A DNA stretch of 64,000 nt, taken from positions 20,135-84,134 of the forward strand of contig JAKLIG010000001.1 in NCBI GenBank assembly GCA_022709735.1, written 5' to 3'. Within the stretch, counting starts at the first letter, position 1, and every line of letters begins with the position of its first letter. This DNA comes from Patescibacteria group bacterium. Lineage in GTDB: Bacteria > Patescibacteriota > Minisyncoccia > Moranbacterales > UBA2206. Positions 16,694-18,829 of this stretch are shown in pieces. The translations under genes were made by a program, and so were the position numbers. The notes below the pieces were generated by a model. That model was not told where the DNA came from. It saw nothing but the letters and a program-made list of their open reading frames with translations, and did not search any database.

Positions 16694-18829
16694 ATGGATA
16701 AAAACCAGGCGAAAATTAGAATCGAAAAACTTTCCAAAGAAATCAACAAAGCTCGCTATGAATATCATGTTCTAGACAAGCCGGATGTGACGGACGAAAT
16801 TTATGATTCGCTGACGGAAGAGCTTCGAAAACTGGAAGAAAAATTCCCAGAGCTTAGAAGTCCGGATTCTCCTACGCAAAGAATCGGCGGAAAACCTTTG
16901 GAAAAATTTCAAAAAGTTAAACACAAGATCAGACAATGGTCGTTTGATGATGTTTTTGATTTTTCCGAACTTCAAAAGTGGGAAGAAAAAATAATAAGAA
17001 TGAAGAATAAAGAAGCAGGAATTAAGAATTTGGCGCTGGAATATGTTTGCGAAATTAAAATTGATGGCCTCAAAATAATTCTAAATTATGAAAATGGAAA
17101 TTTTGTTCAAGGCGCAACGAGAGGCGATGGAATAATCGGCGAAGATGTGACGGAAAATATCAAAACTATTTATTCTGTTCCATTGAAACTTGATTCCCCG
17201 GTTGATCTAATCGCAGTGGGGGAATGCTGGTTAAGCAAAAGCGAATTGGAAAGAATCAACAAGGCGCGAAAAAAACAAAATGAGCCGCTTTTTGCCAATT
17301 CTCGAAACGCTGCCGCTGGATCAATCCGTCAACTCGATCCGAAAATTGCCGCGTCAAGAAAGCTGGATAGTTTTGTTTATGACATAGAAGAAATAAAAGT
17401 CGAAAGCCAAAAGTCGAAAGCCAAAAGCCCAGAGACGCAAATAGAGGAGTTGGAGTTGTTGAAAAAATTGGGTTTTAATGTGAATAGCGAACACAAGCTT
17501 TGCAAAAATATTCAAGAGATAGAAGATTTTTATAATAGCTGGAAAAATAAAAAAGACAAAGAAGATTATGGAATTGACGGAGTGGTGATCAAAATAAATT
17601 CCAAAAAAATTCAAGATGCGCTGGGATATACCGGAAAATCTCCAAGATGGGGCGTAGCCTATAAATTTCCAGCGGAAAAAGTGACGACAGTCATTGAAGA
17701 TATCAAAGTTCAAGTCGGGCGAACGGGAGCGCTCACGCCTGTGGCTCATCTTCGACCGGTGAAAGTGGCTGGCTCAACTGTTTCTCGCGCAACGCTTCAC
17801 AATGAAGATGAGATAAAAAGATTGGACACGAAAATTGGCGATACGGTGGTGATTCGAAAAGCGGGCGATGTCATTCCGGAAGTGGTGGAAGTTTTGAAAA
17901 ATCTTCGGACCGGCAAAGAAAAAAAATTCAAGATGCCCGAAATTTGTCCGATTTGCGGAAGCAGAGTAGCCAGAGAAGAAATAAAAAATAAAAATCAAGA
18001 AGTGAGCGCGGCGACATATTGTGTCAATAAAAAATGTTTTGCGCAGGAAAGGGAAAAAATAATTCATTTTGTTTCCAAAAAAGGTTTCAATATCGATGGA
18101 ATGGGGGACAAAATAGTGGAAAAATTAATGAGTGAAGGACTGGTTTCAAATTTTTCTGATATTTTTGAGCTAGAATATGGAGACCTGGAACCACTGGAGC
18201 GATTTGCGGAAAAATCAGCCGAGAATCTAATAAATTCCATAAAAGAAAGCAAAAAAATAGCTTTGCCAAAATTTCTGTTTGCGCTTGGAATTAGGCACTT
18301 GGGAGAAGAAGGCGCTATTTTAATCGCTAAAGCGATTAAAAAAGAATTTTCAATTTTCAATTTCCAATTTTCAAAAAATTTCCAACCTGCCTCGCTGTCA
18401 AGCGGGTTTCCAATTTCCAATTTTATAAAAATTTTTCCAGAAATAAAGAAAGAAGACTGGGAAAAAATAAAAGGTGTTGGAGACAAGATGGCGGAAAGTG
18501 TAAATGCTTGGTTTTCCGACCAAGAAAATATTGAAATCTTGAAGAAAATGGAAAAATTGGGAGTGGAAATTATCATAGAAAAAGAGCAAAAAAACCAAAA
18601 CAAAAAACTTTCCGACTTAACTTTTGTTTTGACCGGTGAGATGAAAAACTTTACAAGAGACGAGGCAAAAGATATGATAAGAAAAGAAGGCGGAGATGTC
18701 TCATCGTCAGTGAGTCGAAAAACCAATTATGTCGTAGCGGGAGAAAATCCAGGATCGAAATTTCAGAAAGCGAAAGAATTAAATGTCAAAATAATTAGTG
18801 AAGAGGAATTTAGAAAATTAATAAAATGA
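16694..18829 (+). CDS. ligA: NAD-dependent DNA ligase LigA
   Basis: KxDG adenylation motif (EIKIDGLKI), OB fold, Zn finger CPICGS...C, HhH and C-terminal BRCT. Contains an in-frame low-complexity insertion (18346-18436) derived from the TTCAAT repeat. Confidence 0.95.
18346..18436. repeat. In-frame TTCAAT/TTCCAAT mini-repeat insertion inside ligA (encodes [30 protein letters not shown])
   Basis: ttttcaattttcaatttccaattttcaa...gcctcgctgtcaagcgggtttccaatttccaatttt between the HhH and BRCT regions. Confidence 0.65.

Follow-up and report, generated by a model that had tools for sequence, protein, structure and literature searches.

Inverted heptamer arrays form the ends of a probable intervening-sequence-type gene cassette in a Moranbacteria genome

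The 64-kb stretch of DNA analysed here (hereafter, the window) comes from a Candidatus Moranbacteria metagenome-assembled genome (MAG) of the candidate phyla radiation (CPR; Patescibacteria). A preliminary description of it, based on the letters and open reading frames (ORFs), had reported TTCAAT/ATTGAAA repeats in intergenic spacers, in ligA, in a GT4 glycosyltransferase gene and in the 23S rRNA gene, and had missed what the family is. The repeats are the terminal inverted arrays of a cassette that carries a gene for a PF05635 'intervening sequence (IVS) protein' (hereafter, IVP), and this gene ties the family to the classical IVS elements of rRNA genes. We consider it probable that we are dealing with an IVS-type selfish cassette and its miniature derivatives, reshaped by slippage. 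Both LigA and the IVP of the window match MAG proteins at 100% identity, the latter a Candidatus Moranbacteria MAG protein.

A full cassette between pilC and a pilin gene

The single full copy in the window is ~470 bp long, lies between pilC and a pilin gene, and has the following parts.

11157..11206, + strand: left arm of AATTTNC units, identified by Tandem Repeats Finder (TRF) and by inverted-repeat pairing with 11558-11628
11197..11553, + strand: IVP gene, encoding a 118-aa four-helix-bundle protein (PF05635 23S_rRNA_IVP, TIGR02436)
11558..11628, - strand: right arm of GNAAATT units complementary to the left arm

The arrays at 11156 and 11558, described earlier as two loci, are instead the two arms of one element around the ORF. 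This ORF matches Pfam PF05635 (E 4e-15), NCBIfam TIGR02436 (E 1.5e-22) and PDB entry 2RLD (E 8e-17), and its start codon (11197) falls within the left-arm array. When the 486-nt element was folded, the outermost arms were paired in both the minimum free energy and the centroid structures. PADLOC defence models gave no match for the IVP ORF.

No Shine-Dalgarno sequence precedes the IVP ATG. The array periodicity at 11159-11187 (3x7+2) produces a sigma-70-like TTTTCA-N17-TACAAT that ends 9 nt before this ATG, and it is a possibility that the IVP mRNA is leaderless or near-leaderless and driven by the array itself. A promoter scan found only weak TTTTCA-N17-TACAAT matches in the arrays, which follow from the 3x7+2 spacing, were no better than many other sites. 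A terminator scan found no terminator-like matches on the hairpins, whose stems have no trailing T-runs. Neither scan was discriminating. Directly 3' of the cassette, a TTTCGTA array (11652-11684) is the right arm of an older hairpin, of which a complete TACGAAA/TTTCGTA version occupies the pilC-pilin spacer of a related locus (L004, 5225-5300) in place of the cassette. The cassette therefore sits in or beside an earlier hairpin.

The architecture is conserved across CPR

A search with the IVP protein returned 4,234 homologues (E <1e-5); almost all of these belong to Patescibacteria, and many lie on very short contigs. A profile search put the IVP / 'four helix bundle protein' family at 11,542 clusters at 50% identity. 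From GTDB species representatives we took 80 IVP loci, 76 of them with enough flank for an array test. They belong to Moran-, Jorgensen-, Azam-, Nealson-, Kaiser-, Magasanik-, Levy-, Davies-, Berkel-, Kerfeld-, Wolfe- and Peri-bacteria, CPR2 and other lineages. The IVP ORF was bracketed by inverted arrays of the AATTTNC-type family, with its ATG within the left arm, in 70 of the 76. Among 166 ORFs in six Moranbacteria loci that served as a control, only the IVP ORF was so flanked (score 44, against 29 or lower).

Anchored on the ATG, the left ends share the consensus AATTTTCAATTT.CAATTT.CAATTTTCAATcAATTTtCAATGAatCAATTTTCAAAcAA, and the left arm of AATTTNC units closes with ...CAAT-c-AATTTTCAATG, so that the start codon and the first codons (M-x-Q-F-S-N) belong to the array. 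The two arms co-vary: AATTTTG on the left goes with CAAAATT on the right in six of seven loci, and C-type left arms go with G-type right arms. In 50 loci the IVP gene ran in the same direction as both of its neighbouring ORFs, in one it was antisense to both, and the array lay a median of 2 nt from the upstream stop codon. Neighbours of the 80 loci are diverse housekeeping genes; these loci showed no similarity to the 23S or 5S genes of the window, the two rRNAs compared.

The repeat family within the window

The dimer TTCAATTTTCAAT (at most one mismatch) occurs at 23 sites in the window, against 1.5 +/- 1.3 expected, a number that none of 100 shuffles reached. TTTCAAT (32 occurrences) and ATTGAAA (46) are not among the commonest 7-mers (AAAAAAT, 155), so the signal is one of clustering and not of composition, and the family is real rather than merely the commonest AT-rich word. 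The 7-nt unit is AATTTNC. Arrays are confined to the loci named in the preliminary description, and TRF recovered period-7 arrays at all of these (2.3-7.9 copies, 77-100% matches).

11157-11187 and 11558-11628: arrays of the cassette arms
18345-18374 and 18407-18423: arrays in ligA
19106-19155 and 19168-19186: arrays in the gatC-gatA spacer
38611-38640: array in the 23S rRNA gene
50236-50287: array in the GT4 gene
52340-52372 and 52401-52452: arrays in the spacer between a second GT4 gene and holB

We then built a profile hidden Markov model from 50 left cassette ends of other CPR genomes, the window excluded, and ran it on the 64 kb. It matched the same loci and no others, which upholds the earlier view that the intergenic hairpins, the arrays in two coding regions and the 23S rRNA copy belong to one repeat family.

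11145-11219 (E 4.8e-12) and 11636-11572, minus strand (E 1.8e-7): the cassette
19088-19156 (E 5e-11, covering the ATG columns) and, weakly, 19232-19191: gatC-gatA spacer
18326-18385 (E 2.7e-7): ligA
50293-50246 (E 7.8e-6): GT4
52340-52455, both arms (E 2.5e-6 and 3.5e-7): hairpin before holB
38609-38640 (E 1e-3): 23S rRNA

Gene-less hairpins in two spacers

Two spacers consist almost entirely of two inverted arrays.

19106..19222, no strand assigned: gene-less hairpin in the gatC-gatA spacer, left arm 19106-19159 (+ orientation), right arm 19164-19222
52340..52455, no strand assigned: gene-less hairpin in the spacer between GT4 (51227..52351) and holB, arms 52340-52395 and 52397-52455

They are ~116-117 nt long, their arms are 72-77% complementary, and they fold strongly (z = -4.5), in agreement with their earlier description as inverted, hairpin-forming halves. 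The left arm in the gatC-gatA spacer preserves the cassette landmark CAATCAATTTTCAATG, ATG included. As the profile match spans the ATG columns, this hairpin keeps the start of the IVP gene, as would be expected of a deletion derivative. At the other spacer, the first hairpin unit overlaps the GT4 gene's TAA stop codon.

The pilus-ligA-gatCAB region is syntenic in five related genomes (L001, L003, L004, L205 and L206). The pilC-pilin site holds a cassette in the window, L007 and L059 and is empty in L001, L003, L205 and L206. A gatC-gatA hairpin of ~110 nt is present in the window, L001, L003, L004 and L206, that is, in five of six genomes; in L205, the hairpin is missing and the two genes overlap by ATGA. 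The units of this hairpin differ by genome (AATTTTC, AATTTTT, AATTTCT/GAAAATT, TACAAAT and TACGAAT). In L206, the ligA-gatC and gatC-gatA hairpins have a nearly identical right arm that includes the downstream ribosome-binding site and ATG; this indicates copying within a genome. The IVP closest to that of the window (L005, 91% identical) adjoins unrelated genes.

An ORF-less copy in 23S rRNA helix 9

Helices 9, 25 and 45 of 23S rRNA are known to host IVSs. The classical IVS is excised from pre-23S rRNA by RNase III without religation, giving a fragmented 23S rRNA. The copy in the window occupies one of these sites.

38602..38685, + strand: 84-nt insertion at the tip of 23S rRNA helix 9, from the cmscan alignment

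The alignment places the insertion in the hairpin loop at model positions ~131-148, confirming the helix 9 location given before. It contains four UUUCCAA units (38611-38640) that pair with a G-U-rich return arm, and has no ORF. Its RNA folds at -42.7 kcal/mol (z -6.3) in the sense direction and at -28.9 in the antisense direction, a gap that arises because the return arm pairs through G-U. Among the stems compared, this copy alone is asymmetric between strands. We infer that it either stays in place as an expansion segment or is cut out by RNase III, as are the classical helix-9 IVSs. Processing by RNase III has been described for helix-9 IVSs of alpha-proteobacteria (cited in PMC6191907).

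In a set of 80 metagenomic 23S genes with the anchor sequence in common, helix 9 is mostly plain, and most of these genes come from unrelated lineages. The only further array-bearing insert (L086) is 175 nt long and consists of AATTTAC/AATTTTC and complementary arrays (z -5.8). The 23S rRNA of the window (38465-41678) measures 3,214 nt against a model of 2,925 positions, and the helix-9 insert is just 84 nt of this excess.

In-frame arrays in ligA and a glycosyltransferase gene

Two protein-coding genes carry one-armed arrays, that is, direct arrays in one orientation that form no hairpin (z ~0; ligA z -0.8).

18345..18423, + strand: in-frame arrays in ligA (16694..18829), at 18345-18374 and 18407-18423
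50236..50287, - strand: in-frame array in the GT4 glycosyltransferase gene 49505..50632, encoding KLKIENCLKIENCKLKI

The insert peptides read previously from both genes are correct. The ligA array is not between the helix-hairpin-helix (HhH) and BRCT domains, where it had been placed, but within the HhH region, ahead of the last HhH motif. In the AlphaFold model of LigA, pLDDT is <50 for residues 553-569, which lie between helices 538-550 and 575-579 of the HhH region; such a low-confidence loop agrees with the idea that the insert is tolerated as low-complexity sequence.

Of 119 LigA orthologues, 52 have array-derived peptides at this site, 30-56 residues long, such as EFPISNFQFPIKSQISNSKIKN and EIPNPKSQIPNK. 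In the remainder the segment is a uniform 24 residues, and the closest relative has no more than EFSIFNF. Overall the segment ranges from 19 to 56 residues. The ligA DNA of L001, L003 and L205 likewise contains AATTTYC arrays in one orientation. On a neighbour-joining tree, the insert state required at least 33 changes against 39 after shuffling, and the tree is too star-like to resolve repeated gain or loss. GT4 orthologues fall into a graded series with IKHKVES-SKYKDEII at one end, IKLKIEN-CKLK-IE in between and IKLKIQNYLKIKNSKLKII at the other end, some members with nested GC-rich pieces; the series starts from a native IKxKIEN-like sequence and extends to longer arrays. Roughly one-third to one-half of the Moranbacteria orthologues have arrays, of differing lengths and units, at each of the two protein sites.

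These comparisons modify the earlier picture of repeats invading genes as lineage-specific inserts. The reading frame is indeed kept and many orthologues are without the segments, but the graded series, with its varying lengths and units, is compatible with growth of native sequence as well as with invasion, and the inserts recur or persist across species at 65-80% identity. Array length does vary at the same site among related genomes, in LigA and in GT4 and in DNA comparisons as well. Expansion in situ is as likely as insertion at these two sites, to judge by the orthologues.

Some side observations concern the same genes. A 21-nt GC-rich piece, CCTGCCTCGCTGTCAAGCGGG, is nested between the ligA arrays (18389-18409), and L205 carries a 29-nt element (CCGCCYGAGGCGGATCAGCC...) in its ligA, where it is in frame (PPEADQPLA), as well as in its pilC-pilin spacer (~5420-5450). 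Peptides in LigA and GT4 orthologues, LPAGRQ, PTGRQ and AKGGSASSGK among them, point to a second, tiny dispersed repeat family. The window GT4 (49505-50632) has a best match of 68% in the protein collection and none at 100%, unlike LigA and the IVP of the same MAG; the source annotation may treat this gene as a pseudogene or call it in another way.

IVP genes and heptamer arrays beyond CPR

Nostoc and other cyanobacteria account for most of the 29 plasmids on which a tblastn search of PLSDB located IVP homologues. Heptamer arrays flank the IVP gene on at least 11 of the 14 plasmids examined, each with its own unit.

AATTCGT/ACGAATT: two Nostoc plasmids
AATTCAA/TTGAATT: Nostoc flagelliforme and Aulosira
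GTCGGAR/YTCCGAC: N. punctiforme
AATCGTA/TACGATT plus AATCCCC: Planktothrix
CTGGTCA-type: Euhalothece
GAAGA-type: Pseudanabaena
GTAAAAA: Anabaena
ATGAAGG/TTCATNN: Chlorohelix (Chloroflexota)
CTCTCCG: Treponema

The arrays are inverted in most of these; on the Treponema (Spirochaetota) plasmid, the array downstream has the same orientation as the adjacent one upstream. The Monoglobus locus has inverted repeats that are not plainly heptameric, and two Bacteroidota loci are less clear. Two 79%-identical IVPs from different hosts and gene contexts both have the unit AATTCAA, and two 55%-identical IVPs in one host have differing units, which suggests that the arrays travel with the IVP gene; as a counter-example in this small sample, 71%-identical IVPs can carry unrelated units. 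Some plasmid IVP genes lie inside operons or defence loci, namely hsdS-hsdR, cas2-cas1 and DrmD-MmeI, an RND adaptor-permease pair, and helicase-methylase (L213, L215, L216, L217 and L210 among them).

We tentatively extend these patterns to a cross-phylum system, although we hold this broader proposal to be rather less probable than not. IVP/Avd-like genes and bacterial heptamer repeats might form one system in which arrays are cassette ends or gene-less derivatives, and the IVP might bind its cognate repeat and promote its copying, spread or maintenance. If so, the system would cover the cyanobacterial short tandemly repeated repetitive (STRR) sequences, the G-rich heptamers of Xanthomonas and Nostoc, the TAACTGA-type repeats and the CPR TTCAAT arrays. 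IVP cassettes would then make up a class of mobile or self-propagating elements that had gone unrecognised, and the IVP might act with a polymerase or reverse transcriptase as its partner, in the manner of Avd. Binding of the IVP to its cognate repeat is a concrete candidate for experiments.

Relation to known elements

The observations join three puzzles that have been treated separately: the function of the IVP family, the origin of rRNA intervening sequences, and the meaning of bacterial heptamer repeats. They yield a rule that can be tested across genomes, that the IVP gene is the loop of a hairpin built from inverted heptamer arrays. This rule would explain low-complexity CPR peptides (NFQF, KLKIEN) and some CPR rRNA expansions, and may help to explain why many IVP homologues are on very short contigs. 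We found no literature, subscription journals not being covered, that links IVP or four-helix-bundle genes to heptamer arrays or that reports heptamer arrays in CPR.

Leptospira and Coxiella are known to have IVS elements that end in inverted repeats and contain an S23p/IVP ORF (PMC4990558). The cassette resembles these elements in being one of ~450 bp with complementary, stem-forming termini and a PF05635 ORF in the loop, and its ORF-less rRNA copy lies in helix 9, a known IVS site. It differs in that the termini are tandem heptamer arrays, that the full cassette (11157-11628) is intergenic and not in rRNA, and that gene-less and in-frame protein-coding derivatives exist. In CPR, 16S and 23S genes often have insertions, some of which encode 23S_rRNA_IVP, with many short ones at IVS sites (PMC11270868); that report is confined to rRNA genes, and in its main text a term search met neither repeats nor hairpins. 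IVP genes have also been noticed scattered in cas loci (PMC3936711).

Published heptamer repeats, including STRR, GGGAATC and GGGGATT of Xanthomonas and Nostoc (PMC4692102) and TAACTGA of Beggiatoaceae, Cyanobacteria and Bacteroidetes (PMC4679880), share with our arrays the 7-nt unit, an intergenic location and frequent convergent pairs able to form stem-loops. The window arrays are likewise head-to-tail 7-nt copies. The Xanthomonas/Nostoc arrays, for which no explanation was given, are also conserved in position and variable in length between relatives (PMC4692102), as are those described here. The unit sequences differ from those of the CPR arrays, and the published repeats are tied to no gene in these papers, whereas here and on the examined cyanobacterial plasmids the arrays bracket an IVP gene.

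MITEs (miniature inverted-repeat transposable elements) and repetitive extragenic palindromic (REP) sequences with their REPIN hairpins are also short gene-less hairpin repeats in spacers, often just 3' of stop codons, that coexist with a longer gene-bearing relative. Like MITEs, the copies at 19106-19222 and 52340-52455 are short and non-autonomous and have terminal inverted repeats; unlike in MITEs, the one comparison of a filled with an empty cassette site showed no target-site duplication, and the cassette has no known transposase. No REP-associated tyrosine transposase (RAYT), as would accompany REP/REPIN sequences, turned up in the 64 kb, where no search aimed at RAYT was made. Both groups further differ from our arrays, which have no fixed consensus past the units, are internally repetitive in each arm and change their unit over time.

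Weighing the explanations

In the account we judge probable, an IVS-type selfish gene cassette would have the TTCAAT/ATTGAAA arrays as its terminal inverted repeats and, as its loop, the ORF for an Avd-like four-helix-bundle IVP of ~120 aa, and would be closed by the complementary right arm. The cassette would sit in sense orientation within host transcription units, often straight after an upstream stop codon, where a terminal A/U-rich stem of ~25-50 bp could close it off. The two miniature copies would be cassettes after loss of the ORF, and the ORF-less 23S helix-9 copy would have evolved as an RNA hairpin with G-U pairs. One-armed coding arrays would survive owing to a length that is a multiple of three and a location in loops. 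Slipped-strand mispairing would shift array length and unit, with both arms changing together. What the data demonstrate directly is the architecture, its conservation in CPR, the existence of filled and empty sites, the folds and the position in rRNA; mobility, RNase III processing, slippage and any role of the IVP are inferences.

Several results weigh against this account. Pfam and NCBIfam scans found no transposase domain in the sole cassette ORF, and no target-site duplication was visible in the single comparison of a filled (window) with an empty (L001) pilC-pilin spacer. The copies in the window have units in common and no long identical stretches, and recent transposition is unsupported. 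Sense and antisense folds of 68 cassettes were the stronger in 38 and 30 cases, respectively (p = 0.42), which is no sense-strand bias. The coding arrays are without cassette landmarks and graded in orthologues, other heptamer-array families in the window are without an IVP partner, and the fixed gatC-gatA position with its changing units would fit in-situ turnover, or selection on structure, equally well.

The main rival is heptamer expansion in situ, in which slippage favours 7-nt units, arrays arise independently at AT-rich seeds such as AAAATTG, and their resemblance is convergence. It accounts well for the coding arrays and for unit turnover at fixed sites: the GT4 series passes from IKHKVES-SKYK through IKLKIEN-CKLK to IKLKIQNYLKIKNSKLKI, the LigA array has 19 or 39 residues among close relatives, several unrelated heptamer families share the window, and heptamer simple sequence repeats are over-represented in bacteria, for which a slippage hypothesis has been proposed (PMC4692102). 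It leaves unexplained why the arms pair so precisely as inverted copies, why a non-repeat landmark with the ATG is conserved, why whole hairpins are present or absent with sharp edges, and why the association with IVP genes is near-exclusive (one control ORF in 166, against 70 of 76 IVP loci). As an explanation of the family as a whole we therefore think it unlikely.

We give somewhat less credence still to host-beneficial RNA structures, that is, intercistronic processing or stabilising or terminator-like stems, possibly RNase III sites, with the IVP as a passenger. The position of the gatC-gatA hairpin is kept in five of six genomes despite unit turnover, arms co-vary, hairpins begin at stop codons, the L206 right arm bears the downstream ribosome-binding site and ATG, a similar hairpin lies in the 23S-5S spacer, and the 23S copy has its sense-strand G-U signature. 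Yet L205, with its overlapping gatC and gatA, needs no hairpin; one-armed coding copies could not serve in this way; and the spacer stems have no T-runs after them and were missed by the terminator scan. The cassette stems also fold equally on both strands and so behave as DNA-level inverted repeats, which leaves an RNA-level function outside rRNA unsupported. RNA-level selection on cassette stems as a general function was rejected on the same fold comparison. A structural role that benefits the host is possible for some spacers and, as L205 shows, not required.

That the IVP is the Avd accessory protein of a diversity-generating retroelement, with the repeats as its template or target, is very improbable for this locus and was rejected: PF05635 has been likened to Avd (PMC10053308) and PDB entry 2RLD was deposited with five chains of this sequence, but the neighbours in the window are PilC and pilin, the ~5 kb on either side in syntenic loci hold pilus genes and no reverse transcriptase, the 80 IVP loci have diverse housekeeping neighbours, and no template/variable repeat pair or similar long repeat was present.

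Other heptamer arrays and hairpins in the window

The TTCAAT/ATTGAAA family is not isolated: several other heptamer-array families share the window.

41683-41755: hairpin of inverted CAACTGA/GTTGAAA arrays in the 23S-5S spacer (-31.5 kcal/mol, z -6.8)
46118-46222: TACAAAA(n)/TTTTGTA(n) hairpin with a GC clamp (CCCTAC...GTAGGG; z -9.9), between ORFs 44751..46088 and 46288..47550
47535-47581: AAGAAGT/AAGAATT array of 6.7 copies, spanning the stop codon of ORF 46288..47550
51800-51836: AATCAGG array (x5.3), in frame in the second GT4 gene (51227..52351)
22534-22654: inverted TAATTTT/AAATTAn arrays with a weak fold (z -2), upstream of ORF 22658..24691

The CAACTGA unit of the 23S-5S spacer resembles the TAACTGA repeats of Beggiatoaceae, Cyanobacteria and Bacteroidetes, and the AATCAGG array is another tolerated coding heptamer array. 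Two of these unit families also build gatC-gatA hairpins in related genomes, TACAAAA/TTTTGTA in L004 and TAATTTT/AAATTAn in L001. Finally, within the 5' end of ORF 44751..46088, a T-run follows a perfect GC-rich hairpin (CAAAACTGTCTGCCTCATTGGCAGGCAGTTTTG) at 44761-44793.

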